Origin: Eukaryota sp. GEM-RC1
Lineage: Eukaryota
DNA: 64,000 nucleotides
Reading direction: 5' to 3'
Assembly: GCA_040285855.1 (NCBI GenBank)
Contig: JAUFOQ010000006.1
Coordinates: 1,302,001 to 1,366,000, forward strand
The notes beneath the pieces were generated by a model. The model saw nothing but the letters and a program-made list of their open reading frames with translations, was not told the origin of the DNA and did not search any database. Both the position numbers and the translations under genes were made by a program. This document shows, in pieces, positions 10,563 through 63,019 of this stretch. Numbering within the stretch: the stretch's first letter is position 1; each line of letters begins with the position of its first letter.

Positions 10563-10616
10563 GTGAGAAAAACTGTAAACAGTAATTTTTTGATCCGCTC
10601 ATTTTATGCTTTTGAC

Positions 10617-15506: not shown

Positions 15507-16140
15507 CTAATATTTGATATCATTAAAACAACACCCGTCGCTATCAAACCTTACAACAGCTTTGTCCTCATAAAAGAAACTCACTGCTAATAAAGCTTTG
15601 GAGATGATTAGGGGAATTGTTTTAAAAACAGTAAAAACGATCCGATTAACCCATAACATATGATCAAAACGTTTTTTCATCCTATTTTTTACGATTTTTC
15701 CGAAGTCGTTTAAAAAATTCAAAGCACATTTTCCTAAACGTCCGTAAATTGGAAACAGCAAAGGGCATAATTCGTACTCAACAGGTTTTACATGTTTTAA
15801 AGCCATCAATGGTTTCGTGTACTTATCCTGTTTGGCCTGTTCAGAAATGTCTAAAGGAGAAGTTTCAGACGCAGCGTTCTTTAATGATGTCTTTTTACAA
15901 ACATCCACTGACACTACATCAACAACAAACAATTTGTCTGAAGAAGAAGGGGCAACAACATCTGCTCTCCGTTTACCAAAAAATTGGTTCTGTTTTTCGA
16001 CAATACAATTATTACTTGGTTCTAAAGATCTTAGAAGTGGTTCAACAAATTACTCAATTTTGTATGACTTACACATAGCATGTATTTGATCTCTTACAGC
16101 ATCATACATACACGTTCGGTAAGTTATGTAGCGATTACAA
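15507..16140 (-). mobile_element. RLE-type non-LTR retrotransposon 3' fragment (zinc knuckle + restriction-like endonuclease)
   Basis: YDAVRDQIHAMCKSYKIE..., GKRRAD, VVDVVSVDVC, EQAKQDKY, YGRLGKCA, WVNRIVFTVFK. Confidence 0.8.
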
Positions 16141-17896: not shown

Positions 17897-17994
17897 GTTT
17901 TTTATCGTGTCAAGTTGACAGTGTCAAAAGAAAGAAAAATTGAGACCTGCGAAAGTTGATATCTTGAATCTACCAGATCTTTGATGATCAATCT

Positions 17995-20243
17995 ATGCAC
18001 GCCCGATCTTTATCCAATCCAATAGCAAACCTGCTACATCCTAATGTTTCTTTTGAAAAAGCTTGGTTCGAGAAACTCAAACCTGCTCTTCATTCCATCT
18101 TCGAGCAAAGAACATCCAGTCTTTCATTTGAAGAACTCTACAGACATGCTTATCAGCTTGTTAATGGTTCTAAATCTTCTGCTTTGTACAAACACCTTGA
18201 ACATGAAATGAATCAGCGAAGCCTTGTCATTAGCGAACTTCTTTCCCTAGCTCCAGATTCAAGCTTTCTAGATTCTTTTGTTACACATTGCCAAAACTAC
18301 TTACAATCAGCAAAACTTATCTCTGATATCTTCATGTACCTTGACAGAAACTACATTAGCACCCAACCTGACCTTGACTCTGTATACAATATGTGCGTCA
18401 TCACTCTAACTCATGTCTTTTTCCCCTCCAACCCCCCGTCTTTCCTTCAGCAACGTCTCTCCTCAATCTTGGAGGACTCTTTCAACAGAGCAAGGACTCA
18501 TTGGATGTCCGACGTGGACATCTCGGATTCAAGCAAGAATGCCATCCGAATTTTGTTTTCCTTAGGTTTCAACAGCAGAACAGTCTACCTTCACGTCATT
18601 GAATCCCACTTTCTTCACGCTACGTTCAGCTTTTATACCCAGTACTCGTCTGACCGATTGATGAATGTCTCTCTTGCTGATTATATTAATGACGTCAGCA
18701 GAGTGTTGACTTTTGAGGAAAGTCTTGTAAAGTCAGCTGTTGATGATGTGGGAGCCAATGCTTCTAGGAAAGTTGCCCATCAAGCTTTGATTTTGGATCA
18801 TTTAGATCACATATTTTCTCTCGATTCTGGACCAATTATTTGGCTTAAAGTTCCCGATCAAAATTTAAAAACTTTGAATCAGTTCTATTTTTTAATTAAG
18901 GAAGAAAAACCAGCTCTAGAAAGACTGACCGCCATGGTAATTGATTTTCTTTCCAGTTCCATGAGCACTGTTTTTTTAAATTTCAGTGAGAATTTTGACA
19001 CTAATTTTATCATGTTTGTTGAGTCGGTAATTCATCTATTCAACCAAGTGTTTGTTCAAATTTTAAAGAATTCCTTTGAAAACGATCCCTATGTTAAACG
19101 TTCGGTATCAGATGCTTTTGAAAAACTCTCAACTCTGACTGCGATCCTTACAAGAAAGACGCTTCCTTTATCGCTTTATCATTCAGTAGATATGTTGATT
19201 ACATGATTAGGACAAAACTACCCGGTCAAAATGACGTGATTGCGGCCAAAATGATTGATTCCATTATCTCTTTGTTTCGTTTTCTACAGGCCAAAGATGT
19301 GTTTGAAACTTCTTTTAAGGTATTTCTATCCAACAGACTTTTGAAGGGCCATTCTACTAACTTCGACGTGGAGAAACTCTTTCTATCTAAACTACGTATG
19401 GAAATTGGCCAAACTATTTTTCCAATGGAAAGCATGGTCAAAGATATTGAAATCTCCAGAAGTCTTCTCTCTGAGTGGAATCCTGTTGACCTTATCCCTT
19501 CAACCACAGTACTTTGTTTAACTCAGGGAAAATGGCCTTTTGGAGTGCAGAGCTACTCCCCGATCATTCCTCACGTGCTATCTCAATCGTTTGAGCTCTA
19601 TTCCAATTGGTACAGGTCAAAATACAAGGGAAGGCGACTGGTATTGCACTCATCTAAGTCTACAGTCGAGTTAAATTTTGAAAAAGATTCTACAGTTTAC
19701 TCAATTCTATGTTCACTTCACCAGGCCCTGGTTTTACTCTCGTTCAATGGCATTGGTCAAATTCAATCACTGGCTGAGATCATATCAGTTACTGGTCTTA
19801 CTCAAGAAGAATTAGTTGAAATTTTGAAAATTCTGTGTCGTGATTCAAAATATAGACTTTTGCTTCGTCGACCTCGTGATAAGGAAAATTCAAAAAATTG
19901 GACAATATATGATGAATTCACTGTTAACAGAAATTTCTCAAGTAAAACAATTCGAGTTGTGCTGAGACAAGAACTTCCATCTACCATAGAAACTGAAAAT
20001 TTAAATATTTCAACACAAGTTTCTAGGGATCGGACGCAAATGATAGACGCTTGTATTGTTCGACTTATGAAGATGAATCAACGACTAACTCACCGTGATT
20101 TGATCGGCAAGGTTGTTAATGATTTAAAAGTGCATTTTATTCCAAATGTTACTGTAATCAAAGGTCGAATTGACAGCTTAATTGAAAGAGAGTTTATTGA
20201 CCGTGATGACCGTGACAGAGAGCTTTATAGGTATGTGAGTTAG
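17995..20243 (+). CDS. Cullin (CUL3/CUL4-like)
   Basis: SLSFEELYRHAY, IFMYLDRNY, FLQAKDVFE, IDACIVRLMK neddylation motif, IDSLIEREFIDR..YRYVS; one frameshift near 19120-19200. Confidence 0.93.
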
Positions 20244-20539
20244 CCAAGATTGTTGCTTTTGAAGTGGTGAGCGTTCTAATGATTATGTGTTTTTGTTTAC
20301 TGTCATAAAGTTATTATCAATTGTTCGGTGTTTTACCAAAACTAAGTCAAAACGGTTTTTCCTTTGATAATTTCTGGTTTTGTTTGGTGAGTTACTACAT
20401 GCAGTCCTCTTTTGTTCGTTGAAAGTCCGAAATTCATGCTTAAAAACTTTAAAATTCTAATGACAAATGGGAATTGAAGAAAATCAAAAAATCCTTTTTG
20501 TAGAACTTTACATTTTTAGAACATAAACTAGAACTAAAT

Positions 20540-20750
20540 ATCATAAAAGCAACATTCATTGCCATTAAAACTCACATCAGTTTTTTCTTCACAAAAAACA
20601 CTGAGAGCTAACAGAGCTTTTGAAATCATAATAGGAATTGTTCTAAAAATTGTAAAGACAATACGATTCAACAAAAACTTTAAATGAAATTTCTTGTTTA
20701 CTCATTCTTTAACAGCTTTCTCAAAATCAGAGGGAAAACAAAGATCATCC
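20540..20750 (-). mobile_element. Short 3' fragment of the RLE retrotransposon family
   Basis: Sequence similar to 56785-56900 and 15590-15720 (LNRIVFTIFRTIP). Confidence 0.65.
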
Positions 20751-31060: not shown

Positions 31061-31878
31061 ATTTTCCGCAGTCCTAAAAAAGGAAATGACATCTAACTGT
31101 CAAATATACAAAAAGCCGATTTATGTGCGGAGAAAAGCACACAACAAGAAAACAACAAATAAATAAAGACTATTAATGATAAAACAAAGCGGTAGTATCA
31201 AAAACTCTGATTAAAGAAATTATTCAACGACCACGACGTAATTTTGGAAAAGCATCAAAGAGATCCTCAAAAGAGTTCCAGTATTTCCAGAAAAGAAATG
31301 ATATCTACTACTTAACAAATATAAAATCCCGTGTTTAATGATCAGATGTACTTTTAAGCGGAGGTACCAAAGTGGCATGACCATTCTCTTGGGTTAGACT
31401 GGAACCGAGTTTTTCAACCATTAGGTATGTCAGAGTTTGAAGAAGTTTGGCACATAAACGCAAAAGACAAAAATTTCTTATCCCATGACAAAGAGAATGA
31501 GATGAAAAGATAAGAAAACAACAGCGTCCTTAAAAACAGCAAAAAGATGATACAGGTACTACAACATCCCCAGATAAAAGGACAACAGAACGTACTGTAT
31601 TGTGATCAACCTAAGTCATGATGAACAAAACGAATGTGAAGACAATACGTTGAAAAAAAGGGGTTGAGTCTTCGCTCTAATACACCAATCCTTTGCGGAG
31701 GTGTTGCTAATCATCTCTGTCTAGTTTCCATTTTAGTGGAGCCAAGGGACAAGCCCAAGGCTATTCCATTAATGCAATGCGTTTGACTCAAAAGTATTGA
31801 GACCCAATGCTTTATCCGACACTTTTACAGTCTGTAGTGTGACGTAAAACAAAATAAGTCTCCCCAAATGTTGGGTTC

Positions 31879-32390
31879 TTGCTGTTTACTCATGAAAACT
31901 TCGAACAAAGTAACAAATCTCGACATGACAACAATCACATCTTCTCAGATCCTCAACTTAGTAGTGTTGGTTTCACTTCATCTAAATGGTGGACAAAATC
32001 AGCTACCAATCATTATGCTGTCAGAGATCAAATTCATGCCATGTGTAAGTCCTACAAAATCGAATCTTTCGTTGAGCCACTGTTGAGATCACTTGTGATC
32101 AATAATGTTAAAAATAGTGATTTTGATAAGACTTTTGGTAAAAGAAGAGCTGATGTCATAGTTCCATCAGTCAATGATGAACTAACGGTTGTTGTTGTGA
32201 TTACTTGTGGATGTTTGTTGTATTTAGAGATGCTAAAAATGAAATGCATCCCCTTGATTTTTCAGAACATTATAAGAGAAACAAATACTATTACCGTGTA
32301 CCCTTGACTGCTCTCAAATAGACAGGGCACGTTGAGTACAAATTATGTCTTTTTGCACTTTCAATTTATGGTCGACTTGGATGCTCTTCC
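31879..32390 (+). mobile_element. RLE retrotransposon fragment
   Basis: HYAVRDQIHAMCKSYKIESFVEPLL...FGKRRADVIVP; same family as 15507-16140 and 56785-57200. Confidence 0.8.
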
Positions 32391-32395
32391 TAGTG

Positions 32396-33012
32396 TAGTA
32401 TACGGTTTAATTAGTCTGGATCAGACTAATATTCATTGTCATTCTGATGTTCAAAAATATGGATTAGTCTGGATCAGACGAATTAAAATCGCGACTAATT
32501 TGCATTTATTTTTATTAGTCTGGGTCAGACCAATATGTCATGAAATAAATTAGTCTGAATTTTTGTTTTGGAATAGAATCACAGCAAACTCAAATTGTAT
32601 ATGATTAAGCATCTATAACTTATTCATCATACTAACTTCATCACTTTTGAGCCTTGCTACCATTAAAGTCTTATTGATGGTTTGCAACGATTTCCTGTTG
32701 CTAAGGCTTCAACAAGATGAACGGCAGGTTCTTCGTCAAGTTCAATAGCGTCGTCATTTTCTTGAAAATGATTCTGTTGCGATCGAATTCTCACGACACC
32801 ATTTAAGATAGAGAAACTATGTGATGGGGAATTAAAAATGGCAACTCAATAGCAGCAATATGGCACCAATCTTCTACTGACGTTTTTGGAGATGGGTTCA
32901 AAATTCAGACTAATTATCATAAAATTGGACATTTTTTATTTTTGATATACTAGAATAAGAATTAGTCTGGATCAGACTAATTTAAAATCCAGACTAATTA
33001 AACCGTTTACTG
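32396..33012. mobile_element. Tc1/pogo-like MITE
   Basis: 25-bp TIR (C/T)AGTA(A/T)ACGGTTTAATTAGTCTGGA with internal TTAGTCTGGATCAGACTAA near-palindromes; TSD not clear. Confidence 0.65.
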
Positions 33013-33655
33013 TTGTTTTCTTTCTGAATACAAGCAAGATTCCAATACAAGCTTAGTAGGGTATGCTTGCATTGTTTCCCTTGGTAAACTCACATATTTG
33101 TTTAAACAATTACTAGTTTTGATGCACAAACGTTTGGAATTTTTCAGTCTCTAGACAAACAGTTTGATCATAAGTTTTGGTTGAATCGTGTTGTCTTTAC
33201 AAACAATTCCTGTTTTGATTTCGAAAGCTCTTTTACTCTTAATGTTTTTTATGACGAAAAAGCTTCTGTGAGTTTCAATAGCAATAAATGTTGTTTGAAT
33301 TATATTGAGTTCTAGTCTTTGCTCACTACTTCTGTTTAAAAAATCGTCTTGAATTGCATCCACAAACTTTCTTTTCAGAAAGCTGCTTGGAGCTATTGCA
33401 TCTCTATTGCAGAGTAATGAGAGTAGTGATGACGTGTAGTTTATGATCCTTGTTACCTTTGATAAACAATTCTTCTCTTTGGGACCTTAGAAAGGCAACA
33501 TGTCCTTCAAGAAACTGATAAGCCACCATCCAGATTCAATAGAGTCTGAAAGAACAGTGTCTTTGAATTGCGATCAGGACTAATCTTCTTTATATTGTGG
33601 AAGTAAAAAACCAATCTAAAAAAACAAATTTCACTTTACATAGAAGAATAACAAT

Positions 33656-34998: not shown

Positions 34999-35878
34999 AT
35001 GTACTATCCTTTGCCTGACGGTTCTTACGGATATGGGATCCGTGACTTTGTCACAATCTTTCTGTGCTCACTCATCATCACCTCAATCAGACTAGTTCTT
35101 TCACTCACTCTGTCACGAACAATACCGAAACACATAAACATATGCCCATCCACGCTCAAAAAGTTTATTGAAAACTCATTCTATGCCCTCTACTACATCT
35201 TCGCTGTTCTGCTTGAATTGATCCTACTCTCACGTCACAAGTGGTTCTGGTTTACCTCATGGCCCGAGTCTGTGATTTCTATGAATTTAACCTACTGTTC
35301 ATATGAGACCAAGCTCGTTTACATGATTCAGATGGGATTTTACTTACAAGGATTCTTTGCCTTGTTTCATGAGTCAACCAAATCCAAGAACGATTTTTCC
35401 ATGATGATCATTCACCATGCCTCCACCTCTTTACTTCTTCTCACTTCATATTTCGGATCAAGGGCTGTTGACTATGGAACTCTCGTTCTATTTCTACATG
35501 ACGTATCAGACATCCTTCTGTTTGTCTCCAAAGCTCTTAACTATTTAGACTTGAACTACTATGCAAACAAAGGGTTTTCGGCCTTTGCCATTCTATTTTT
35601 CGTCTGCAGATTGGTTTTGTTTCCTTGGCTTATTGGAACCCTCTATAGAGGTAGTAAGTATTTGGACTGTAGGTATCCACGCCTAAATGTGTATGGTTTT
35701 ATTTGTAATATCTAATTTTAGAACTTTCTGGGGTTTCCCGCTATTCTTTCTTCAGTTGTTACATGTAAAATGGTTTACAATGATACTGCGAATGGTTTTT
35801 GAGAAACTTTCCCATGGTAAATTGACTGGGGATATACGCAGTCCTCCTAGAGAAGTAGAAAAGAGTCATGTTATATAA
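34999..35878 (+). CDS. TLC-domain ceramide synthase (LAG1/LAC1 family)
   Basis: KKFIEN, KNDFSMMIIHH, LFLHDVSD, DIRS; 31-nt intron 35691-35721 (GTATGG...CTAAT..TAG). Confidence 0.9.
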
Positions 35879-35989
35879 GTTTATATCTATTTCTTAAACC
35901 TTTTCTGTGGTGTTTAAATAAAGTGCTCATTTTTAGAATACGTTCTTAAACAGAGTTGGATTGCTAACATAATTATCCTTTGTACGTAT

Positions 35990-36171
35990 TACAACACTTT
36001 TTGTATCTCTTACATACAGGGTACATTGAGAGTTGACAGGATGATCCAATTGCTCTTTTCCTGGATTCTTCTCAACTTGTGGTTGATTGCAACAGTTGAC
36101 CCGGTTCCAAAAGTCTATATGGAATTAACCAAATATGACGGGGTTTCACCCGTCAGCTAACAAAAATAAAG
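35990..36171 (-). ncRNA. Putative Fanzor omegaRNA
   Basis: Immediately 3' of the Fanzor stop; stems TGACGGG/CCCGTCA, TTCCA/TGGAA, TTGAGA/TCTCAA with inner ATCCA/TGGAT; boundaries inferred. Confidence 0.45.
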
Positions 36172-38460
36172 CTAATTTCTACATAAGTACTCCACTCTCT
36201 CATCACTACCATTCATCCAGTGTTCGAACATGTTCATCATGTTCAAACAAGCCATCTTGTTTCGATTCCAATACATTTGAGTGGGCACTGTGTGCCCTTT
36301 CTTTTCCCCCTTTCAATCGTTTCTTGACTTCTCCCAGACAATGTTCACTCCTACACTCTAGTAAGCCATGTGGGTGAATCCATTCTCTTTTCTCTCTTGA
36401 TTTGGGCTTTGGGTTGACAACCTCAATGGAAGTTTCAAAAACATCTTCATGACATTCTGGACACTTGGACGAAGTGTTTCTCTCATCATTCATCACTGTT
36501 AAAAAACCGTTTCTCTGAAAGAATGAAGTCCAAGTCTTAGTTCTGGATGGTGGACTGTGTTTTAAGTTGGACATTGGCTTCTGACCTAAATCACCAATAC
36601 ATAGTACGATTTTGTCACGGCTACCAAAAGTTTTTACAATGCTGTTAACCAATTTAGACTCTGTCTTTTGCTTATGGACATGATTTTGGATTTTGTGAAT
36701 CCTCCATATATGCAAAGCATAGAAGTCTTTAGTTGCATTGTAATGAATACATTTAGCCAGAATAAACTTTCTAAATTTAGTGTAATTAACAGTTTTAGAA
36801 TCATGTTCTTCACTTAACCAAGTGTTCCATTTCTCAATTTTCATTGTCACAGTTATTGGATTATCATCACCTGCTCTCACGGTAGTAGTACCTGATCTCC
36901 TTCTAACAAGGTACTGGTGGATTCTTTTATGCTTTCGTGAAACTCTAGACCACTCAGCATATGTCAATCGTAAGAAGTTGTATTTCTTTAGAGGATTTTG
37001 AGTTTCCCTATTTGATTTAGATGCAAGTTGTAGCATATCTCTCTTTCCAATGTCCACATAAACCATTTGTTTAGAAATATAATCAGACCTATCACATTCA
37101 TTGAAATATTGTACTTTTACTGAAGCTTTACTTGAATCAGGTTTACATTTCATACCTTTCAGATCCTTTCTCACAAATTGAAAACAAATAGAAATTCCAT
37201 CAGTTACAGCATAGTTGTTGAATTCAAAATTGGCTTTGTCAAAACTTCTGTCTTCACAGTTAAACCATCTTTTCCAGTAATCTTGTTGTTGAGAATGGGT
37301 CATGTTTTGGATCTGGTCTTTACTCATATAATTAGTCACTTTCGAATGTAAAGGACCAATCTTCTTATCATTATTCTTATATCCAAAACAGTGCTTAGCC
37401 AGTCCCCAAAGAGTTCTAGTATCTATTGGGAAAAAACAGGGAGTATTCTCTAAACTTAGAGGAATTACATTATACAACTTAGCACCCTTTGATTCCAAGT
37501 AATCTGAGATTTGAAGAGAATTTCTTAGAAAATGAAGTGGATACTCCTGAACGGTGTAAAGTAAATTATGAACGTCTACAGTTTCATTGTCGTTAGTAGT
37601 GATTGTAGCAGGAAATATGATGTTAAATCTTTGAAGTAGTTCTGGAATTTTATCAGCCATTAGAGAATTAACCTGTTCAAATATTAACATACTGAAATCA
37701 TCATCAAAAACTTTAGAAACTTCATCAATAAACTTAACATTTTCAGGGTGAGTGGCAGAGTTAAAAGAATTAATATACTGTAAGGCTTCATCTCTAGGTC
37801 GATACAAAATCTGGTCTTTCAACATCTTTAAACGAAATCTGAAGTAACTAGTGAACTTTTGTGCTTCACGACTTGTTAGTCCTGCAAGTTCTGGACCTAA
37901 AACCAAATTACGTTTCTTTTTCATTCCCTTTTCAAACTCTTTCTTACCCATTACTGTATTGATAAATCTTTTAATGTACAACTCATAATTGCGGCGAATA
38001 TTTAATTCAAACGCAGGCCACATTTCATACTGAGTAGTCTATTCAAAAGCTCTACTGATATGATCAAAATCAAGTTCTGGTAAATGACATGTGCCAAATG
38101 TATCAGTAACACAGTGCTTATATCCAGGGTAGTTTGAGTCAGCATTATAGATTCCTTCTCCAGCAACAAAATCACGAAGGTCTGGATCAATCGTTCGTAT
38201 AGGACTATTATTTGGAATTTTAAAGTTATGAACTTCAGATGAAAGATTTCTAATTGAAAGCATTGTATGATAAAACAACTTGTAATCAAACTTAGACAAA
38301 TCTTGTCCAAGACGATAGCGAGCCAACAGATATTCTTTAACACACATTGTAGTCTGTTGTCTTAACGCATTGTAGAACTCAGATCCTAAAAGCATGGCAT
38401 CTTGAACTTCTTGATGTTTTACCACACTAACAACTGATGTTTTAATAGAAGCCCATGATT
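36172..38460 (-). CDS. Fanzor1 (eukaryotic TnpB-like RNA-guided RuvC nuclease) domain, ~760 aa, interrupted by one in-frame TAG and one frameshift
   Basis: WASIKTSVVSVVK N-terminus, ELNIRRNY, TDGISIC, RuvC-I YVDIG, IGDLG, RuvC-II NDERNTSSKCPEC, HGLLEC..C, RuvC-III YWNRNKMACLNM, ends ERVEYLCRN*. Confidence 0.88.
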
Positions 38461-38489
38461 GAAAAACAATTTTGTCTTTTTGAAATAAA

Positions 38490-39240
38490 ATAAACAATTT
38501 AAACGCCAGAATTGAATCATGAAGACAGTAGTTGATTAGCGTTTTCATTCTTTTATCACTTCTTAAACAATCAACTGGGAGTAAGTGGTCCAAGTCTTTA
38601 TCCAATTTCAATTTAGGTTCAGAAAGTAAATTCCAAGATAAATTGGCTAGACTACAACCATACTTGAGACCAATATACTTCTTTGCAAATAAGAAGGTAT
38701 CCAAAACTGTAAAACCATTGTGATCTTTTATGATATCCAGCCATCGACTATGTAAAGGCAACTGAATTGGATTTGGATTTGTTAAAAGAGGAAGGTCAAG
38801 AGCCCACATTCTATTGTCAATTATGGGCAAATCAAAATTGAAAATATTATGGCCAATAAAAGCATTTGGTTTATATTGACTAACAATATTAGCGTACTTA
38901 ACCAATAATTCTTTTCATTTGGGAAGTCCAAAAGATCTAATTTAAAAGCTGGTGTTTCTGAATCACCAAATTTGATTTTATAATTGTAATCAGTGTAAAG
39001 GACGATTGAGCTGTCAAATTGTAACTCACCATTGGATTGCAATTTTGCAATAATGACAGAGATCATGATGATTTGTTGATCTGCGAGAAAATCAATGTCG
39101 TGAGCTTCTTTCTCAAAATCATTCATTAACAATCTTCTCTGTTTCAAAGACTCTTTTCCGTTCTACGATGTTTATTCAATTCTTTGTTCACTCGTGTAGG
39201 AATTCTCTCATTGATATTTCTTGTTTCAATATCAATTATA
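38490..39240 (-). CDS. Family-B DNA polymerase-type (DEDDy/DnaQ) 3'-5' exonuclease domain, fused in frame to Fanzor
   Basis: ExoI IIDIET, IIMISV, NEKELL, ExoII IGHNIFNFDLPII, ExoIII NYCLHDS; no polymerase motifs; two homopolymer frameshifts. Confidence 0.82.
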
Positions 39241-39739
39241 AACACTGTAGGAAGGTTGTCATCAACAACAGTATCAGTTGCAATGTCAATAAATGGAATT
39301 CTTGATTCTTTTTCCTTTTTTCCTTTAACAACTGGAATTTCAGGAAATTCATTCAAAGAACCAGTTGAACCTTCAACTACTTGCGAGCTTTGACATTCTT
39401 CGTCAGTTTTAGGGAATTTTGTACAACCACTAGATTGATCATACAGTCTCTGTTGACGTTTAGAACCTTGTTCTTGAGGACGATGAATTACTGACGAATG
39501 ACACTTTTTGGTTTCCGTTCTAGTCGTCGTGCTTTAGAGTTTTTGACGGATGTGTCAGATGAAGAAGAATAACTTGATGAAATTTTATTAGTTACTTCTA
39601 GAGTTTTACGACGAGATAACAGACGTGTAGAAGGTTCAGAATCGGAAGATTTATTTCTTTTCCAGCAGGTTGATTAGTTTTGGGAGATTTTTTCTTTCCA
39701 GTGTCCGATCTACTATGTTGTTGCTGAGGAAGTGTAGGT

Positions 39740-40370
39740 GGAACTATTGTTGGTTGTAAAGATTGAAGATACAATTTTATTACTTGCCTACTCTCTTGAG
39801 CATTGATAGAGTTTTGCAACAATATACCAGCAGCTTGAATAAGAGGTTGATCTGAGAATTCATGTGAAGTGAGAAGTTCTAAAAGTCCTCTCATATACTC
39901 AAGAACATAAATTCCACAATCATTTGGTGTTTGCTTCTCTATCACTGGAACAATAATGAGTCGATACTGGAGTTGATGAAGAGTTTCGTCTATTCTCGAA
40001 ATAACTTGATTCAAAAACGAATTAATTTCATGTAAATTCTTACCAACATCCTGTCTGTGATTTTCAACATCATAAAGAGGATCGAGAAAGATGAAAAGTT
40101 CATCATGTGTATCGATTACAACCAAACCCCAATGTATACCAGAACTTTCGTTGATCAATGCGTCATTTATTGGAAGAAACAGATATCTAGAATTTGCCTG
40201 AAGAATCTTGTTGATGAAAAATTGGTGAAGAGATTGATTTTCATGAACTAAAAATGATTGAACAGATCCAGGAGTTACAAAGGCGTTTAAATCAACTCCA
40301 TATATCTCCATCAAATGTCAAGAGTACCAATTAACACAATCGTCCACAATCCAACCATCAGGTGACAAAG
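39740..40370 (-). CDS. Ulp1/SENP8-like cysteine protease domain 2
   Basis: GWIVDDCVNWY, FLPIND...GIHWGLVVID, FLDPL, KQTPNDCGIYVL (H-D-Q-C); in-frame TGA at 40318-40320. Confidence 0.8.
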
Positions 40371-40684
40371 TCTTGATTGCTTCTGAAACCTCTTTTAAAT
40401 CATTTTGTGTCAGAGCATTGGGATTTGAATCTGGAATTTCATCAGGAGATGACATAAGTGTTGAAGGTTCAGATATTTCAGAAGTACCAACAGATGTATT
40501 CATTTGTTGTTGAGATTGGGTTGAATGAACGTCAGTAGGTAACCCTAGGTAATTCCTTATTTCATTATTTAACATAGTCCTGTATACTGTAGGATCAAAA
40601 GTTTGATAAGATAAATCGAATTGACATGTGGTGAATGCGGTACAATGACTTAAACCTAACAACCGATTGTATTCTGTGTAAAAC

Positions 40685-40965
40685 TGATTGATGGCATTTT
40701 GATAGTCATTCTGTGCCTTTTCTAAATGTTTTACCTGAGTTTCTGGGTCGTTTCTATTGATCAATTCTTGCAGTGATTGCACTTTCTCATCCAATAATGG
40801 AAGTTTATACTTCAAATCAATAATTATCAACTGATTGACCGCATTTTGATAGTCATTCTTTGCGTCTTCTAATTGTTTTACCTCAGTTTCTGGGTCGTTG
40901 TTATTGATCAATTCTTGCAGTTTTTGAACTTTCTCCTCCAATATTGGAAGTTTATGCTGCAAATC
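40685..40965 (-). repeat. Two tandem 147-bp (49-aa) helical repeats within the polyprotein
   Basis: KLPILEEKVQKLQELINNNDPETEVKQLEDAKNDYQNAVNQ / KLPLLDEKVQSLQELINRNDPETQVKHLEKAQNDYQNAINQ. Confidence 0.9.
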
Positions 40966-40968
40966 AAC

Positions 40969-41733
40969 TTAATTCAAAAGCTGGTTATTGAAGCTTTTAT
41001 ACAAAGTTTCAATCACATATAAAACAAAAATCCCACAATCATAGTCATTGTTTTGTTGTGGTACACTTAGATTGTGAGGATGAAAAAGATTGCTAGCACG
41101 TGCTACATGTTCTTTGGTTGAATTTAAGAACATTTTTCCATTAAGGGAATCTGCGAAATACAAATGACTCAAAGCAAGATCGTAAATAGCAAGTCCCCAA
41201 TGACTTCCAGGAAATAATGCAGTTATAGCATCATTAATAGGCATTACTACTAACACTTTACCAACGTTTTTAGATTTAATGGTTGCAGAAACATCGGCCA
41301 AATTATCTTGATTTCGTATAGCGCTGCCAAACTCCATAGGGTCGAAATCTCCTATAATCTCTGCAGCTAAAGGATACTTTTGTGCTATCAAGTGATGTCC
41401 AAAATTTAAATGTGAAGATTCTAGCCATGTTTCATCATCCAGAGGACTAATACCACCAAAAGCAATTTCTGGGCCAGGGTTTGACTCAATGTCTCCGTCC
41501 ATAGTCAAATCACGGACAAATTGTGATGACTGGAGATTTATGTTGGTTTTTGTAATACAACAAGAACAACAAGAACCACTACAGTATGGAGTACTATAAC
41601 AAAAACAAAAAAGAAATAGAAGAGATTTGAGGATCGAGGGACCCATGAAAATCTTCATAAAGACCTGACGGTCTTGAGCGAAAATAAAGCAACAAACCAA
41701 GCAAAGGAGTGATCTGAGGATCAAAAGACCCAT
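40969..41733 (-). CDS. Hydrophobic leader + 2A peptide + Ulp1/SENP8-like protease domain 1
   Basis: ETWLESSHL, MPIND...GSHWGLAIYD, FADSL, PQQNNDYDCGIFVL. Confidence 0.82.
   Translation of the reverse strand: MGLLILRSLLCLVCCFIFAQDRQVFMKIFMGPSILKSLLFLFCFCYSTPYCSGSCCSCCITKTNINLQSSQFVRDLTMDGDIESNPGPEIAFGGISPLDDETWLESSHLNFGHHLIAQKYPLAAEIIGDFDPMEFGSAIRNQDNLADVSATIKSKNVGKVLVVMPINDAITALFPGSHWGLAIYDLALSHLYFADSLNGKMFLNSTKEHVARASNLFHPHNLSVPQQNNDYDCGIFVLYVIETLYKSFNNQLLN
41470..41520 (-). other. 2A/StopGo ribosome-skipping motif FVRDLTMDGDIESNPGP
   Basis: Exact match to the GD(V/I)ExNPGP consensus. Confidence 0.85.
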
Positions 41734-41929
41734 AGAAGGCTCCTGACAGTGGGGAGACGAAGCACAGTGAGATATCTAACCAACACGAAGTCGATAGACA
41801 TCTCACTAAGCGAATGATCTTAAATTTCTGTTTGAACTATTTGTGGTTAATGTCTACATTGACATGTTGACATCTTGACGATGGACTGCATTTTGTCTAC
41901 AGTAATTTCACTGGAAATTTGTAAATAAT

Positions 41930-42415
41930 ATGCCGTTACATCTACCTCACCAATGTAAGAACTCTCTTCGCAAGATCAGAACAACACTTCGCAGCTTACA
42001 TCACCCTGCTTCAAAGTCCTCTAGTGCTGACACTCATTCGTACTATATTGATGTTCCCGAACAATGCGATCTTCACAACGTAGTACTTATATATGATCAA
42101 GACCGAGAATTATTTCGTCCCGCAACGCTTTCTGATCCGCCTCATTGTATAAATCATTTAGCAATCATCCCACTTACGACTCCTCTGAAGCTCACTAACC
42201 GTACAGGAAAAGTGTTTCTTGTCACACAGGTTTGCCAGGAATGCTCACAGTATTTTGTTTCTTTGGATCCTCTTCCTGTGATGACGTCGTCTCCTGATAA
42301 CGTGGTAGTCACTAGTCCTCCTTCTGGTCCTACTTCTGGTCCTTTCTTGTACCCTCTCTTGGACAGAGAGGAGACAGATAGTGCACCATCAGCCCCTGTT
42401 ATGGATGATATTTGA
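41930..42415 (+). CDS. Hypothetical 161-aa protein divergent from the polyprotein
   Basis: ATG-started intact ORF with a CxxC motif; no recognised family. Confidence 0.4.
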   Translation: MPLHLPHQCKNSLRKIRTTLRSLHHPASKSSSADTHSYYIDVPEQCDLHNVVLIYDQDRELFRPATLSDPPHCINHLAIIPLTTPLKLTNRTGKVFLVTQVCQECSQYFVSLDPLPVMTSSPDNVVVTSPPSGPTSGPFLYPLLDREETDSAPSAPVMDDI

Positions 42416-42669
42416 GTGATCCTTTGACAAGTTCTTCTTTCCCATGTAGGTGATCATTAATGACTTGTGTATTAAACGTATGATCATTATGTTTCTTCTA
42501 TCTTTGTCACATTTTTATGAATATTTAGCCTTCTAATGTTCTTCTAGTTTGATGTGATTCATTTGATCAATGAAAGAGCTCTGAGAAAAAACAATCAAAT
42601 TTGATCTTGGTGACAGTAGACATCTACTAACACAAGATTTGCTACAAACATCTACTGTAGTAAAATCCA

Positions 42670-43380
42670 TTAATGATTGACTCGATTTAAGCCACGGAGT
42701 ATGGAGATCCCGTCTTTTTGATCAGTAAATTCATTTTCTGAAAGATGATTCAAAACTGGTTCAACTATAGAGTGAAAACCATGCGCTTTAAACATGGAAT
42801 AGCAAGAATCACGTACACCATCATGAATTACTGCACGTAGATGAATATAATATCGACAATTAATTAAATGACGAAATACACCATTAGCTCCACAAGAACA
42901 AGTCGAATAGTTTAATAAATTTGCAGGCCAAATAGCCAAACGAAGACGCATATTGATCATCCAAGCTTCATCAGATAGATGAAATGCCAACACATTAGGA
43001 ATTTGAGAAATAAATCCAGAAGGTCCACTATTACAAAGGTCCATTAAAAAAGCAGCGAACTCGGGACTATTAGTTTTAGCCAAGCTAATACGATTATTAA
43101 AGTCCAAGAGTTCAAACTCCTTGTCAATTTATTTTGGAGCTTACATACAGCAGACGGTAGAGATGAAATATTTTTTAAAGGAGTCTCATTCAATTGAGCA
43201 GGGAACAAAGATTCTCACATTTCAGGAGACAAAGATGATACCAAATCTTTAGCAGATTGAATCCAACGGCAATTACTGGAATTCAACAGATTGATTCCAT
43301 CCAAGGGAAACCGTTTCAAAAATTCAAACATAAAATTCTTAACACCTCCTAAAAAAGCAGATTTTCTAATGATTTTAGCA
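42670..43380 (-). mobile_element. RLE retrotransposon fragment (post-RT region and zinc knuckle)
   Basis: WMINMRLRL, CSCG...HLINC...HDGVRD. Confidence 0.8.
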
Positions 43381-43610
43381 TGGGTGAAACCTACCCTGCA
43401 AATTCAGGTAAATAGAAAGCATGAAATGGAATCTTAGTCTCATCAATTTCAGTCAAGTTAATTGAATACAACAACAATCACAACACAAAATCTCCACACA
43501 ATAATTGTGATATGCAACTATGTTGTTAAATAGCTAAAATTTGAATTTTGATGAAGATCAGATGGTGTTTCAACTTGAAACACCTCTTTCAAGAAAGAAA
43601 CTAACTGATC

Positions 43611-44978
43611 ATGGATGACTTCCTTTCACCCAAACAAGTTGTGATATTTCTATCGCTTGTATATCTGTTGTTTCAAACAGTTATCCATGTTGTTCTTTAT
43701 TTCTTCCACTTCACACACTCGTATTTGTTGCTCATTGCTGTGTTCAGTTTAACCATATCTTCTTTAGTGGTTGTTTGTGCCCTAAACTACGTCCGAACAT
43801 TAGAGAAATCAAACAATGGAGTCTTGCAACGGGTATTTCTCAGCTACTTTTTCACTATCGCTGCTACCCATACATTGCTGACTCGGTTTTGGGTGGAAAC
43901 AGATCATTTTGATTTGTACCTCATCTCCGCCTCAGTCATTTCTTTATTTGCTCTCTTCATGACCCTAACTCACAACTATAACCCTTCCCTACTTCTATCA
44001 CTCTCTATATTTGGAATCATCACCACCCTCCTTCTTCTTTTCTTTTCCCAACTTCCCAATATTTCTGGTTATACTTCAACCTTCCGCACTCTAGATCACT
44101 ACCATATCCTTGTTGGAGATCCAGGTGATAGCTACGTGCCTACCGACCTTGACGATCTTCTCAGTTCAATCAAATCTGATCATGGGCTCTATGTGTTATC
44201 AGGTCCACCTGGAATAGGAAAGAGTTTAGCTCTCTATCGTCGTTTTAGGAAGGAACGCGTGATTTGGCTGAGTGCTAGGGCAAGCCTATCAACTAACCTT
44301 TTACATTTGGGCTATAGAGAATCTGATGAAATTAAATGTTTTGATTTCATTACGAGAGAACTCAGAACAAACAAATACGTGCTTGTAGTTGATGACGCAC
44401 ACTTAGCTCGAAACGATTCTCTAATCTCAAAACTCTACCTTGGAGTTGGATCTGTAAAACCTCAGTTCAAAATCTTTTTGATTGTATCCGATTACAATCA
44501 TTACTTATCACGTATTCGGGATCAAGTCAGTCGGACAGTGATTGATCTCTTTGGGTCCTACCCTCAGTCTAATGTTGTTAAAGAAGTTTGTTTAAAGCAC
44601 AATCTTACTAATTGGGAAGTAGTAGTCAACTTGACTGGTCCCTCGCTTCGATTGATTGCTAACTATGCTGATTATGATCGATCTATCATGAGGATGAAAT
44701 GCAACGGTCAGATTGATTCTCTTTTACTGTATCAGCATGTCCAACCAGCTTTGTTGGAGTTTACGACGATGTTTAAAAGTGATTATGGTCGACTTGATTT
44801 AAGAAAGTCTGGAATCAATCAAGAAATGTTTGATTTTCTTGTGATTAGGAATATTTTATCTGGGATTTATTCAAATGCCTATTTCCATGATCCTCTTGTC
44901 CGCAGAGCTGCTTGTACGTTGTTTGAGCACCACAATCTACCTTCTTGTAACGTCACCCTTTGTCATCAGATCACGTGA
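43611..44978 (+). CDS. Multi-TM protein fused to a P-loop ATPase
   Basis: ~5 hydrophobic helices, Walker A GPPGIGKS, Walker B LVVDD. Confidence 0.7.
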   Translation: MDDFLSPKQVVIFLSLVYLLFQTVIHVVLYFFHFTHSYLLLIAVFSLTISSLVVVCALNYVRTLEKSNNGVLQRVFLSYFFTIAATHTLLTRFWVETDHFDLYLISASVISLFALFMTLTHNYNPSLLLSLSIFGIITTLLLLFFSQLPNISGYTSTFRTLDHYHILVGDPGDSYVPTDLDDLLSSIKSDHGLYVLSGPPGIGKSLALYRRFRKERVIWLSARASLSTNLLHLGYRESDEIKCFDFITRELRTNKYVLVVDDAHLARNDSLISKLYLGVGSVKPQFKIFLIVSDYNHYLSRIRDQVSRTVIDLFGSYPQSNVVKEVCLKHNLTNWEVVVNLTGPSLRLIANYADYDRSIMRMKCNGQIDSLLLYQHVQPALLEFTTMFKSDYGRLDLRKSGINQEMFDFLVIRNILSGIYSNAYFHDPLVRRAACTLFEHHNLPSCNVTLCHQIT

Positions 44979-48493: not shown

Positions 48494-49566
48494 TTAAAGA
48501 ATTTCATCATCAGACTCATCCTCAGGAACTTCAATAACAGCATTAACTTCTTCCTCTTCACCTGACATTTCCAATTCGCTCATTCTCTCTTGAATAACCT
48601 GTACATCTTGACCTACATCTCCATCTGACAGTGTTTCTACAACACGTGGTCTGATCTCCATTTTATCGAGGTCAATCGGCAGTTTCTTAGCCACCTTCCC
48701 AATTGAGTGCATCAAATACCCTATTCCTTGGTCACTTTGGCCTATTTCTACAATCTTTTCTTCATCTCTACTCTCATAGGCGTCTAGTAAAGCCTGAATT
48801 GAGTTAAAGTCAGGGCTCTGCATTAAACGGGTACCAGCACAATTAGCCATGAAGTACTCGTCGGCTTTGTGGTAGTCACCTGCTGCTAGTAGAAGTATAA
48901 TGGCACTAAAGATGTCCTTCCACGAGTTCTCCATTTGACCAATATCTATGTGTAATTGTTTAACTGAATCAAAAACTGAGCACACTCTTCATACTTTTGA
49001 CCCTTGAGGAGGAGGTTTACAAGTGGTGTTACTACAGAATCAATAACCAATCGTTTGGTTAACTCTTCTGATAAACTTAAATCAAAAGCTTCCTTATAGG
49101 TCGATACAGCTTCATCCTGAGCTCCAGCAGCAACCTGGGCTTCTGCTGCTTTAGCTAGGGCCTTTATCCTGGCTGCAAGGTTATCAGACAGACCATATTC
49201 TAGGGAAGCGTCCAAGTAGAGAGTGACAGACTCAGAGTGGTCATTGAGTTTAGTGGCTAGAGAAGCAGCTAGTTCAAGGTTTTTACCAGCAGAGTAATGT
49301 CTACAACAAGAAGAAGAGTATTGGCATACATTCCAGTTTGAGAGTGAGATAGGGCAGACTTCTTGAAAGCATCGATTGCTTTGGGGAAATCCTTGGCTAC
49401 TTTAAAGGAAGTAGCAGCTCTTTCAAAGTGCATAGCAGCTGATTGATGCTCCGGTTTCCATTTGAAGAGACTGGTCTTGAGACTAAGTTGAGCAAATGCG
49501 AAAGACAACGAACGCAGAGCTCCCGTCACGATAATGGGCTTCAGCTTTAGCCAAAGGTGTAGCCAT
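48494..49566 (-). CDS. NAPG: Gamma-SNAP
   Basis: LKTSLFKWKPEHQSAAMHFERAA, TPR-like helices, acidic C-terminus DDEIL; introns 49483-49513 (31 nt) and 49301-49329 (29 nt). Confidence 0.85.
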
Positions 49567-51763: not shown

Positions 51764-53149
51764 TTAAGAAATCATAGAATGAGAATCAACCAGTTCAAAG
51801 AAATCTTCACTAATTGTTTGGTAGCGACTCATAAATTTTAAAAATTTGGTCTTAACAGAAGAATTAACTAAATACTCAATGTTCGTGATCTTATTCCCGA
51901 CAAAAATTAAATAATTCTGTAAATTTTCAATAGAATCACGAAGTGCATTTGGACTGCAAGGATTCGGTACCACGGCAAGCTTGGACACGATATCTCCACA
52001 GCGGTCCTTTAAAACATCTAAATCATGTTCAAATTCATCCAGAATTTTTAAAAATACTGGTGAGGGAAGATTCACAGACAACATCTGATCTAAGATTAAC
52101 AAAAATTCAAAATTTTAAACATACTATCTTTGATAAATCCGACACTTTCTTTTTAATCCAGATATTTCTGAAGAAATCCACCTTGAATGTTCCATTAACA
52201 CCGACACCCGCAGTTTAACTTCTTTACAATTCTGAACAAGAGACTTTGACTGGATTGCCAAGGAAGCAATAGGATTTGAAGAAGAAAATAGGTTGGAGGA
52301 GAGCAGCTCTTGAACGTTGTCTTTTGAAGTGATGGACTTGGTTAAAGTTTGATGTTTCTTGATATGTTTGTTTAGCTCTTGCAGCTGAGATTTGAGGTCG
52401 TTGGGTAGATCGGAGAACTTAGTGGTTTCTGAGAAGTGGTGGTAAGCAGGGAAGTACTGTGTAATTGGTTGGGTAGGGGTGGGGGCGCTGTAAGAAGAGG
52501 TGCCAAACCCACTAAAGCTCGGTGTGGGCTGAGTGGGTTGAGATTGTCCAAAGAGCGAAGGTTGAGTTGTGGTATTTGATGATCCACCAAAAGAAAACGA
52601 TGGAGTTGAAGTAGTTCCTGAAGGTTGAATTGTGGTATTTGATGATCCACCAAAAGAAAACGATGGAGTTGAAGTAGTTCCTGAAGGTTGAGTTGTTGTA
52701 TTTGATGATCCATCAAAAGAAAACGATGGAGTTGAAGTAGTTCCTGAAGGTTGAGTTGTGGTATTTGATGATCCACCAAAGGAAAACGATGGAGTTGAAC
52801 TAGTTCCTGAAGGTTGAGTTGTGGTATTTGATGATCCATCAAAAGAAAACGATGGAGTTGAAGTAGTTCCTGAAGGTTGAGTTGTGGTATTTGATGATCC
52901 ACCAAAGGAAAACGATGGAGTTGAAGTAGTTCCTGAAGGTTGAGTTGTGGTATTTGATGATCCACCAAAGGAAAACGATGGAGTTGAAGTAGTTCCTGAA
53001 GGTTGAGTTGTGGTATTTGATGATCCACCAAAGGAAAACGATGGAGTTGAACTAGTTCCTGAAGGTTGAGTTGTGGTATTTGATGATCCACCAAAGGAAA
53101 ACGATGGAGTTGAACTAGTTCCTGAAGGCTGACCAAAAGAAAAAGACAT
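51764..53149 (-). CDS. FG nucleoporin Nup58/Nup49-like
   Basis: FSFG repeats, TKFSDLP..L...I, LPSPVF...FE coiled coil; 35-nt intron 52090-52124 (GTATGT...TTAG). Confidence 0.72.
52557..53128 (-). repeat. Nine near-identical 63-bp coding tandem repeats (QPSGT(T/S)STPSFSFGGSSNTTT)
   Basis: Direct inspection. Confidence 0.95.
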
Positions 53150-53533
53150 GGGTGATTAGTGTAGGAAAATCTTTGTGAAAATTGTAAAAGTGGAAGACTT
53201 TTGATCAGGGAAAAAACACAAGAAAACAACAAATAATAAAACTACAAAACATTATTCAGTACCCAATAAGGTAACATTCCTACAAATCTATGAAATTGTA
53301 AAAACAAACAAATAATACTAAGATTAAATCCAAATGACTTCATCCCCATCCGGTTAACATTTGCGTTGTTTCGTTCAATGCACAGATATTTTAATTCAAT
53401 TTTAGGTAAGTTGTTCGGTGATGGACAGAAGGATCATAGTTTAGATACTTTAGTTAGTGTCTGTTAGTAAAAAAAACGGATTTATGTGCGGAGAAAAACA
53501 CATAATAAGTTAAGTACAAATAGATAAACACTA

Positions 53534-54088
53534 TTAAAACAAATTATCAAACGAACTACCTAATTCCGAAAAGTAGTTGCCTCCAAACAACTTGGACAAA
53601 ATGGAATCAACATATCTATACATAGACCTAAAAATCGAAAAAGCAAATTTACTCTTCCAGTACGATCTGTTAAACTTTTTGCCAAGTTCTGAACACAAAT
53701 TTTCAAATAAACTTAAAAACTCCTTGGTAGAAGAACCGAAATTTCCGTACAATGAAACTGCAAAAGGCTGAAAGACGATATTATTGTGTCTTCGTGAATT
53801 CAATGCAGCAACTTGATGTCCATACTTAGACACTTTGGCGTTCTCAGCGTCTTTCAGCGGATCATTTGAGGGATTCAAAATGTTGGCAATAGCTGAAGCT
53901 TTGCAAGGATCAACGGTCGTAAAATCAACAACAATTTCTTGGCATGACAACCAAGGGCCAATAAAACCACCACGTTTCTGAGTAGAATCAGGGTGATCTG
54001 AAAGATGAGAAAGTAATGGTTCGACTTTGCCATGGAAACCATTTGCCTTAAACATTTCCAAACATGTATCTCGAAGACTGTTGTGCAA
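53534..54088 (-). mobile_element. RLE retrotransposon 3' fragment
   Basis: HNSLRD, VEPLL, VVDFTTVDP, AENAKVSKY, PFAVSLYG, WKSKFAFSIFR. Confidence 0.82.
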
Positions 54089-54429
54089 AATTGAACGACA
54101 ATATATGAACTTAGTCTGTTAGTTATTAACTTCTGCAAATGCATTTATTTCACTGACTGATCATAAACCCCGTTTTATTCCCCATCCGGTAAAAGATTAC
54201 CTTTTTCAACATTAACCTTCACACCAAACTTGTACAATTTCTCAATTAATCGAGAGAAATAGAAACGCATATTCCGATATATGGAAAACACTGTACGGTA
54301 TTTCCATTCAGCCATTCTAAACTTCCGCTTCTTTTCTTTACACAGTTCTTTGAAATCCTTGAAAAATTGATCACCATCATAATGTTATTGTACTTATTGC
54401 AATATATTATATTATATATTATTTATATT

Positions 54430-55160
54430 TTCTTGGAAGCAAAATATGCGTCTTCGTTTAGGTTTATTCCCTAGTGGTTTGCTAAATAATTCAATCTGTG
54501 TTTGCGATAACCGAGCTACAGCCACATTTCGTCATGTTGTTAGTTGCAAGAAATTTTTGCAATTTCGACCTGTTCTACATAACGCTATTCGTGACGTTAC
54601 TTATGAAATGTTCAAATCCTACAATTATAGTTGTAAAATTGAACCTCTTCTGAAACATTATAGCGACAATAACGTGTTTGATTCTCGGCGTGGTGACTTA
54701 ATTGCTCCTTTCCTGGATTCATCTCAAGTTGTGGTTGATTTTACTACAGTTGACCCGTTTGCAAAAGTCTACCAAGACTCCATATTGAATGATTCGAATG
54801 GTCATCTGGAAAAGGCTGAACAACGAAAGTGTTCAAATTATGCGGATGCTTTGCAGAAGCTTAATGAAAATCTATATTCAAAGTTTTCATTTGTTCCATT
54901 TGCCATTTCAATTTTTGGAAATATTGGTCCAGCCGGTTTAAAGTTAATTAGTGATTTTAGTCTTTTATGTCGTTCTAATGGCAAGGTGTTTAATAGCGCT
55001 GTATGGATTAATCGAATTATGTTCGCTCTTTATAGAAGCATTCTCAAGTATTTATGTTCCATTTATTCGAAGTTGTATAGGGACAATTCTCGTGTTGATG
55101 TGGAGAATTTAACTTCTTTCATTTTCTGAATTAGTATGTATTAATTTATTGTTGCAAATA
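54430..55160 (+). mobile_element. RLE retrotransposon 3' fragment, next to a hAT right end (TIR-like CAATATATTTTTTCCAATCCCTG, ~55182-55204)
   Basis: MRLRLG, CVC...HVVSC...HNAIRD, RRGD, VVDFTTVDP, AEQRK, PFAISIFG. Confidence 0.85.
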
Positions 55161-56784: not shown

Positions 56785-57400
56785 CTATACCTTACTAGTA
56801 GGAATTGTTTTAAACATTGTAAAAACAATACGATTCAACCAAAACTTGAAATCAAATTTCTTGTTCATTCTTTCTTTGACAACTTTGTCAAAATCAGAGA
56901 GAAAACAGAGAGCATCTTTACCAAGTCGACCATAAATTGAAATGGCGAAAGGACATAATTTGTTCTCAACACGTCTAATATGTTTGAGAGCAGTCAAGGG
57001 AACAACATATTTGTTTCTCTTGTATTGTTCTGAAAAATCAAGTGGAGAAACTTCATTTTTGCATCCTAGTCCTTGAATGCATTTTTTTCTGCAAACATCC
57101 ACAGTACTCACATCAAAAACCGTTAGTTCATCATTGACTGATGGAACTATGACATCAGCTCTTCTTTTACCAAAAGTCTTGTCAGAATCACTATTGTTTA
57201 AATTATTGAACTTTTTCGGTACCCAAAAATGTAACCTTCCTACAAACTATGAATTTGCAAAAACAAACAAACAATACTAAGATTAAATCCAAACGACTTC
57301 ATCACCATCCGGTAAAAGATTACGTATTTAAACATCTACAATTTCTCAAGTAATCGAAAGAAATAGAAAGTCATATTCCGATAAATGGAAAACACTCTAA
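56785..57400 (-). mobile_element. RLE retrotransposon 3' fragments of two families
   Basis: GKRRAD, YKRNKY, YGRLGKD; 57218-57400 matches 53258-53355 and 54178-54292. Confidence 0.78.
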
Positions 57401-60229: not shown

Positions 60230-60395
60230 GTTACAAGATGTGTAACACAAGATTTGTTTTACAAGATGTGTTTTACAAGATGTGTAACACAAGATTTATA
60301 ATGCAACATTTGTAATACAAGATGTGTTTTACAAGATGTGTAACACAACATTTGTAATACAAGATTTGTAACACAACATTTGTAATACAAGATGA
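60230..60395. repeat. Degenerate tandem minisatellite (ACAAGATGTGT/ACAAGATTTGT/AACATTTGT units)
   Basis: Direct inspection. Confidence 0.85.
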
Positions 60396-62895: not shown

Positions 62896-63019
62896 TGAGT
62901 TGATGGATTGTTTGAGCGCAGGGAAACTTGGTCTTCATCAAATTTCTCTTTCAGAAGCCCCTTATCATACGTTAGCTTTGTCAGAGAGTGATGTTTTGTA
63001 TGGGTTTGGGTACAATGCC

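Follow-up and report, generated by a model that had tools for sequence, protein, structure and literature searches.

The Fanzors described so far are compact stand-alone genes, which is the ground on which a fused form becomes relevant. Known Fanzor1 (Fz1) proteins are mostly single-domain open reading frames (ORFs) of 600-700 aa (PMC11423790). The window analysed here, a 64,000-nt stretch of Eukaryota sp. GEM-RC1 (contig JAUFOQ010000006.1, positions 1,302,001 to 1,366,000), holds a decayed copy of a multi-copy element of an anaerobic protist, from a family in which, unlike known Fz1, an ORF of 1,200-1,850 aa ends with the Fanzor and also contains a 2A motif, a 3'-5' exonuclease and optional proteases. 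With Spu-1 (SpuFz1, PDB 8GKH/9CEU) and GtFz1 it has in common the full Fanzor1 fold (as modelled below), the rearranged RuvC-II Glu, the C4 zinc finger, an ORF that stops within a few dozen bases of a structured 3' end and the lack of a transposase in the element; its D-E-N triad is as in GtFz1. We are highly confident that the exonuclease-Fanzor architecture is genuine, and consider it probable that the window subfamily has the full single frame of 1,850 codons.

The piggyBac superfamily shares with the element a candidate TTAA duplication and candidate CC...GG ends, and both types of accessory gene, DEDDh nucleases (also accessory genes in P elements) and Fanzors, have been reported for it (PMC3627910, PMC13565253); here, however, there is no transposase, the terminal match is very short, and a DNA polymerase B (PolB)-type exonuclease is fused to the Fanzor instead of being separate. 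The 2A-bearing non-long terminal repeat (non-LTR) retrotransposons (L1Tc, Ingi, CR1/L2), some of which have an OTU or Josephin domain, likewise have an N-terminal 2A before the enzyme and optional cysteine-isopeptidase cargo (PMC13405545), whereas the element has no reverse transcriptase or APE endonuclease and its enzyme is a Fanzor. Among solved structures, each of the three protease domains tested matches SENP8/NEDP1 (PDB 2BKQ, 1XT9) best, with Ulp1 or SENP1 behind it and with the His-Asp-Cys residues and the oxyanion Gln kept; compared with SENP8/NEDP1, these domains are weakly similar (E 1e-7 to 1e-3), borne on a mobile element and in tandem in the window copy, and are candidate deneddylases. 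Each part has a precedent as transposon cargo, and the fusion into one Fanzor ORF appears undescribed: no such fusion is described in the literature searched on Fanzor/TnpB fusions, with survey supplements and Repbase, which may hold long fused entries, outside its scope. This agrees with the sequence-only reading, an earlier interpretation of the window, which had not recognised the architecture among described Fanzor loci. Recoding by 2A, reported for viruses and retroelements, appears to be extended here to a probable DNA element, and the family suggests a mobile element with deneddylase-like cargo.

The core architecture was found intact in relatives of the window copy. A search with the Fanzor segment led to P0001, a 1,194-aa protein of Eukaryota sp. 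TZLM3-RCL in a cluster of 14 proteins; close relatives from Eukaryota sp. GEM-RC1 were in clusters of 18 and 2, and Eukaryota sp. TZLM1-RC contributed a cluster of 11. The strains correspond to the skoliomonad metamonads of PMC11316075, which have repeat-rich long-read assemblies and automated gene models. An intact core in one frame (2A, basic linker, exonuclease, Fanzor1) was present in relatives of 1,194-1,473 aa, from the three named skoliomonad annotations and from unnamed subfamilies at 25-50% identity: P0001, P0002, P0004, P0011 and P0013 (1,194-1,308 aa), P0039 (1,233 aa), P0053 (1,281 aa) and P0108 (1,473 aa). In P0053 and P0108 a single frame covers the exonuclease and the entire Fanzor, together with the 2A in the case of P0108. 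These clusters and intact relatives bear out the earlier claim of a distinct mobile element, here seen to be multi-copy, in which one frame encodes the Fanzor along with a 2A motif and an exonuclease.

When P0001 was searched against 1.84 billion representatives, 1,235 matches were obtained, of which 150 were listed; nine among these 150 carried the exonuclease, and the non-fused matches of at least 550 aa among those listed (n=102) had a median length of 677 aa and a maximum of 817 aa. The 12 family rows of a 63-row tree (midpoint root; 50 outside sequences) formed one branch with support 1.0, and 8 of 9 family rows grouped together in a 35-row tree (Shimodaira-Hasegawa-like approximate likelihood ratio test, SH-aLRT, 99). 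Constraining P0108 to the family in the latter gave an approximately unbiased test value (p-AU) of 0.41; a single fusion origin including P0108 was neither shown nor rejected. Metagenome scans gave no confirmed locus.

The exonuclease of the window copy matched DNA_pol_B_exo1 above the Pfam cut-off (E 1.4e-7) and has the DEDDy signature, with ExoI DIE at 39233, ExoII FD at 38833 and ExoIII YCLHD (YxxxD) at 38530. The first three acidic residues were kept in 9/9 aligned representatives, as was the fourth, at 23-51% pairwise identity, and the distance from the ExoIII Asp to the first strand of the Fanzor was 25 residues in 8 of the 9. By sequence, the intact relative P0039 matched SpuFz1 with E 1.6e-14 and Pol delta weakly; an Atlas search with P0039 gave exonuclease leads only, all sub-threshold. 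A structure model of P0001 from a 114-row alignment (pLDDT, predicted local distance difference test, 74.5; predicted template modelling score, pTM, 0.66) matched SpuFz1, PpFz1 and GtFz1 first (SpuFz1 template modelling score by target 0.80, E 6e-26), which indicates a predicted Fanzor1 fold with WED, REC, RuvC and TNB parts, and PolB exonuclease domains next (E 2e-5); the same two match classes were returned from a viral library. The Pfam and SpuFz1 matches confirm the 3'-5' exonuclease and Fanzor1 proposed earlier.

The Fanzor1 motif D-x(125-275)-TS-xx-C4 zinc finger, taken from PMC3627910, is present in the window copy, with about 193 residues from Asp 37054 to the TS near 36475, followed by CPEC at 36463 and CRSEHC at 36355. 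The RuvC-II Glu is the rearranged one, six residues ahead of the zinc finger (ERNTSSKC, 36484), and a Gly is at the canonical position (IGDL, 36598). The RuvC-III Asp (RD) was not found in the main clade, which has Asn (WNRN) throughout, while P0108 keeps Asp; the triad of the window copy is D-E-N. As the active GtFz1 uses D-E-N and D606N raises SpuFz1 activity (PMC11423790), this triad does not indicate inactivation, and the Asn does not exclude Fanzor1 membership. The Fanzor1 of the element is predicted to cut DNA under RNA guidance. The Fanzor part carries a precomputed label, PF26935.

In the window copy, the following features were identified, listed from the 5' (left) end of the element.

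41847..41850, no strand: candidate target-site duplication TTAA, 5' (left) end (post hoc, single copy)
36129..41846, minus strand: candidate whole element, 5,718 bp, ends CCACAAATA ... TATTTGG (post hoc TTAA pattern)
41766..41807, minus strand: long stem-loop just inside the 5' end, ahead of the first ATG (z -6.0 in an 80-nt window; z -5.1 over 41600-41900)
41512..41733, minus strand: hydrophobic Cys/Leu/Phe/Ser-rich leader, unconserved between subfamilies
41470..41511, minus strand: 2A/StopGo-like motif RDLTMDG-DIESNPG/P (canonical core and upstream class)
40972..41472, minus strand: CE-clan (C48) protease 1, SENP8-like; His 41202, Asp 41151, Cys 41037 (SENP8 E 2.5e-7, Ulp1 3e-4)
40682..40967, minus strand: two 49-residue helical repeats (147-nt tandem repeat; also in P0049)
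39770..40400, minus strand: CE-clan protease 2, SENP8-like; His 40134, Asp 40083, Cys 39918 (domain broken by stop 40318)
39250..39769, minus strand: basic Ser/Lys/Arg-rich linker with 2 frameshifts (61-codon bridging frame; composition)
38470..39249, minus strand: PolB-type DEDDy 3'-5' exonuclease; Asp 39233, Glu 39227, Asp 38833, Asp 38518 (2 frameshifts)
36172..38469, minus strand: Fanzor1, about 760 aa; RuvC Asp 37054, Glu 36484, Asn 36261 (broken by stop 38039 and the frameshift near 36300)
36463-36340, minus strand: Fanzor1 C4 zinc finger (motif)
36136..36155, minus strand: GC-rich 7-bp stem-loop, 17 nt past the stop codon, candidate part of an omegaRNA scaffold (z -2.7)
36125..36128, no strand: candidate target-site duplication TTAA, 3' (right) end (post hoc pattern)

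The frame (minus strand, 41733-36172) opens with the ATG at 41733, closes with the stop at 36174-36172 and has 1,853 codons in total. It is divided into 9 segments by 8 breaks, of which three are in-frame stops (40969, 40318 and 38039) and five are frameshifts (near 39660, 39500, 39156, 38914 and 36300). All five frameshifts are in A/G runs and 4/5 are one-base-missing steps. The segments and the frame of about 1,850 codons proposed by the sequence-only reading are present, although it had counted seven joined ORFs; its three in-frame stops also stand, but two of them are not domain junctions, as 40318 is inside protease 2 and 38039 is about 140 codons into the Fanzor (start near 38449). The three stops are substitutions and are probably real decay of the window copy. 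The frameshifts are probably assembly error, because the host genes for dynein, presequence protease, SNAP and cullin are frame-broken too and the readable dynein breaks are in homopolymers, in keeping with the earlier attribution of the shifts to homopolymer errors as in dynein and gamma-SNAP. The frame-split host genes of the window, which point to residual assembly error, are the dynein heavy chain (87-6468, 3 breaks), an M16 presequence-type protease (7681-10598), a cullin (17968-20240) and a SNAP-like gene (48497-49401).

Twenty close copies (best match at least 84%; the window's own proteins excluded; 16 of the 18 cluster members listed) were compared with the window copy at its breaks. 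The single copy reaching stop 40969 reads Gln, the three reaching 40318 read Arg, Arg and Gln, and 9 of the 10 reaching 38039 stay in frame. One copy reads through the frameshift at 39156 and three through that at 38914. Seven copies reach the frameshift near 36300 and are in three different frames, with 2/7 in the conserved one.

The proteases vary between relatives, with 0, 1 or 2 copies, and none in the intact 1,194-1,473 aa relatives. P0058 has the order leader-2A-protease-linker-exonuclease-Fanzor start, which is the window order with one protease and no 2A between protease and exonuclease, and P0042 has protease end-2A-linker-exonuclease, while the 2A is directly ahead of the linker in P0001, P0039, P0024 and P0076. 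Judged by the domain orders of P0053, P0108 and these six relatives, the 2A-exonuclease-Fanzor unit is the constant core and the proteases are optional, movable cargo. The polyprotein claimed earlier is therefore upheld for a protease in frame (P0058, P0042) and not for proteases as a fixed part.

The hydrophobic leaders before the 2A are unrelated to each other (pairwise scores at background), and F, L, S, C, Y, V and I make up 50-66% of six long leaders. No NPGP other than that of the 2A sequence DIESNPGP at 41493 occurs in any of the window's six frames. With its upstream motif (RDLTMDG-DIESNPGP), this sequence has the D(V/I)ExNPGP core from which skipping is predicted; by the scheme of PMC12846837 it fits the canonical core as well as the (R/K)DLTxDG class of upstream motif. 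2A motifs were found in 16 other proteins of the fused-Fanzor family, those of P0058 and P0076 with His in place of Glu. In P0024, and in P0001 compared with P0002, the same downstream linker is joined to different 2A-ending leaders, which suggests module swapping at the 2A or gene-model splicing. No longer relative of the leader-protease-1 ORF was found among 927 candidates, which is weak evidence.

Peptidase_C48 matched twice in the window copy above the Pfam cut-off (E 3e-7 and 4e-10), and the protease of the close copy P0049 matched SENP8 with E 5e-4. The earlier Ulp1 label was right as to the C48 clan, but these domains resemble the deneddylase SENP8 more closely than Ulp1, and with SENP8/NEDP1 as the best match, polyprotein processing would not be their likeliest job. 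The 147-nt tandem repeat between the proteases is 88% identical. The 2A, the two C48-type proteases and the repeats all occur as first proposed. The 49-residue repeat (40682-40967, minus strand) has a weak UBA_4 match (E 3e-5, just above the cut-off); a ubiquitin-binding role beside isopeptidases is possible, and a coiled-coil artefact is as likely. The distal linker aligns to that of P0039 (0/1000 shuffles as good) and the proximal linker does not (355/1000); between protease 2 and the linker, an open frame of 61 codons (chance about 0.014) spans the gap, and its composition is like that of the P0039 linker.

The right end of the element is confined to the 18 bases 36118-36135, because the terminal hairpin after the stop (36155-36136) is on one side and another repeat's fragment, starting at 36117, is on the other. 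A signal-peptide-like gene at 35918-36160 was considered as an interrupted host gene and rejected, since 36048-36117 is a fragment of a repeat also found at 54700 and its continuation was not found at the other end. The 18-base interval holds GG/TTAA, and TTAA/CC is found at 41850-41845 just ahead of the strong hairpin at 41807-41766, giving TTAA/CC...GG/TTAA at the two ends of 5,718 bp (chance from motif density about 0.003 right and 0.025-0.15 left; chosen post hoc, in one copy). We take such termini to be a piggyBac-type signature. With TTAA reported for piggyBac (PMC13565253), the ends are candidate piggyBac-like ends, and the assignment fits a non-autonomous element only, as there is no transposase in the element; a non-autonomous DNA transposon is likely. 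The absence of a transposase from the element's ORFs agrees with the sequence-only reading, while a virus-like origin is not supported, as the element has no viral gene and scans of viral contigs were empty. The 3'-end hairpins (z -2.5 to -2.7) are an omegaRNA candidate from a single DNA copy; Rfam gave no match over 35500-44000, so no known ribozyme or omegaRNA family is present there.

The last 8 bases of a second family member in the window are those of the left-end complement (TGTGG/TTA), which weakly supports the candidate end. This second member, a Fanzor fragment (62992-63917, plus strand), lacks the 5' part, is 46% identical to P0108, contains the canonical NRD as well as one frameshift, and has a CCHC knuckle with a basic tail at its C-terminus, followed by hairpins and TGTGG/TTAC at 63972. 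Head to head with it is a broken PIF1-family helicase with an acidic C-terminal extension (60262-62934, minus strand), which contains a 90-nt palindrome (62416-62505) and is either a host gene or a Helitron-like relic.

Restorative homing is an accepted role of systems with obligate mobile element-guided activity (OMEGA), and piggyBac is among the listed carriers of Fanzor (PMC13565253). A mechanism can be proposed on this basis, in which 2A skipping would drop the unconserved hydrophobic leader, so that the working protein would start at a fixed proline. An omegaRNA from the 3' end of the element, with its guide read from the right flank, would load the Fanzor. A piggyBac-like transposase acting in trans would excise the element, and the Fanzor would cut the empty site about 20 nt from the junction. 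TvTnpB cuts 21-22 nt from the transposon-adjacent motif (TAM), and such nucleases about 20 nt (PMC10530073), so one broken end would carry a short tail that crosses the junction and is unmatched to the filled template. The rigidly attached exonuclease could trim this 3' tail, whereupon host recombination would copy the element back. Proofreading by yeast Pol delta removes short non-homologous 3' tails. The optional proteases may strip NEDD8 or ubiquitin and shield the complex against turnover by the host. We regard this mechanism as a whole, homing with cutting and 3'-tail trimming, as evenly balanced. Its fullest form, in which a lineage of eukaryotic RNA-guided nucleases, Fanzor1 fused to an active proofreading exonuclease, evolved into natural cut-and-trim enzymes that work on their own break to bias repair toward copying of the element, are released from a polyprotein by 2A and are escorted by deneddylases disarming host cullin ligases, is tentative and rather doubtful. 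Fusion to an intact-looking 3'-5' exonuclease predicts the fate of DNA ends after cutting, for which intact natural relatives exist. Engineered nuclease-exonuclease editors exist, and the fused Fanzor, if true, would be their natural counterpart.

Several observations weigh against a single-frame polyprotein on a piggyBac-like element. The joint between protease 2 and the linker was spanned in frame by 0/20 close copies, with P0046 ending at the window's own stop and P0048 and P0049 ending earlier at one shared codon; the relatives are automated gene models, which may step over breaks via predicted introns; and the exonuclease/Fanzor junction was poorly modelled in P0001 (pLDDT <50, residues 421-454). 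For the ends, target duplication and omegaRNA, the basis is a single copy and a pattern noticed post hoc, perfect matching at the termini covers only about 7 bases, a blind 12-mer search for inverted or direct terminal repeats remained at shuffle level, and neither a DDD nor another transposase was present in the element's ORFs, nor was a transposase partner found.

The eight breaks, and a copy lying among repeat fragments, could be explained by a chance pile-up of unrelated fragments or by an endogenous-virus relic, as 2A motifs and CE proteases are common in viruses. This is very improbable: the identical domain order is intact in many relatives, which refutes chance pile-up, the case that the sequence-only reading had set against itself, and there is no capsid, packaging ATPase, polymerase or integrase in the element or the scanned window ORFs. 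More weight, though still on the doubtful side, is due to the proteases of the window subfamily being a separate upstream ORF, with only exonuclease and Fanzor truly fused, since each of the three close copies that extend to where protease 2 ends terminates ahead of the linker, two of them at one shared codon, and P0024 has the 2A directly ahead of the linker. However, the gap is bridged by the open frame of linker-like composition, P0058 has the protease-linker joint in frame, and the C-terminal homopolymer shifts are shared as well; with seven close copies in three frames there, shared breaks can be systematic error.

Hairpins near both ends, the second family member lying beside a PIF1 helicase without its 5' part, and an N-terminal 2A with deubiquitinase domains, typical of non-LTR ORF2 proteins (PMC13405545), could instead reflect Helitron2-like rolling-circle movement, or copying in trans by the abundant non-LTR elements, in place of cut-and-paste. 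We consider this unlikely, as no asymmetric terminal inverted repeat pair was found above chance, the element has no Rep, helicase, reverse transcriptase or poly(A), TTAA flanks both candidate ends, and PMC13565253 reports no Fanzor-encoding retrotransposon. It is comparably improbable that the exonuclease matures the guide, trimming the 3' end of a read-through transcript to 15-20 nt, rather than working on DNA. RNA can be a substrate of DEDD exonucleases, Terminon DEDDy enzymes have been proposed for 3' ends of structured RNA or single-stranded DNA (PMC6431247), and the exonuclease joins at the start of WED, the point that in SpuFz1 stacks on the guide's first base (PMC10432273); yet every sequence or structure match is a DNA-polymerase proofreading domain, and about 100 stand-alone Fanzor1 matches have no exonuclease domain. 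Trimming of DNA ends by the fused exonuclease is the reading we favour.

The only transposase match among the scanned window ORFs was a hAT C-terminal fragment (17186-17653, minus strand; E 5e-11), 19 kb from the element and within inverted repeats 16295/17896 and 16446/17159. Just outside the candidate left end is a 161-aa ORF (41930-42415, plus strand), a singleton cluster with no Pfam or usable Atlas match. Many short fragments of one repeat occur at 15510-16105, 20519-20749, 31858-32380, 33155-33324, 36048-36117, 42540-43250, 53537-54118, 54383-55126 and 56788-57246; their translations, with no Pfam match in those scanned, resemble the C-terminal zinc-knuckle/restriction-like endonuclease of non-LTR elements. 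The window also contains an element resembling a miniature inverted-repeat transposable element at 32397-33011, which has terminal inverted repeats of 25 nt (96%) and palindromic sub-repeats in its interior, and a nucleoporin-like protein with a 21-residue FG-type tandem repeat at 52127-53155 on the minus strand.

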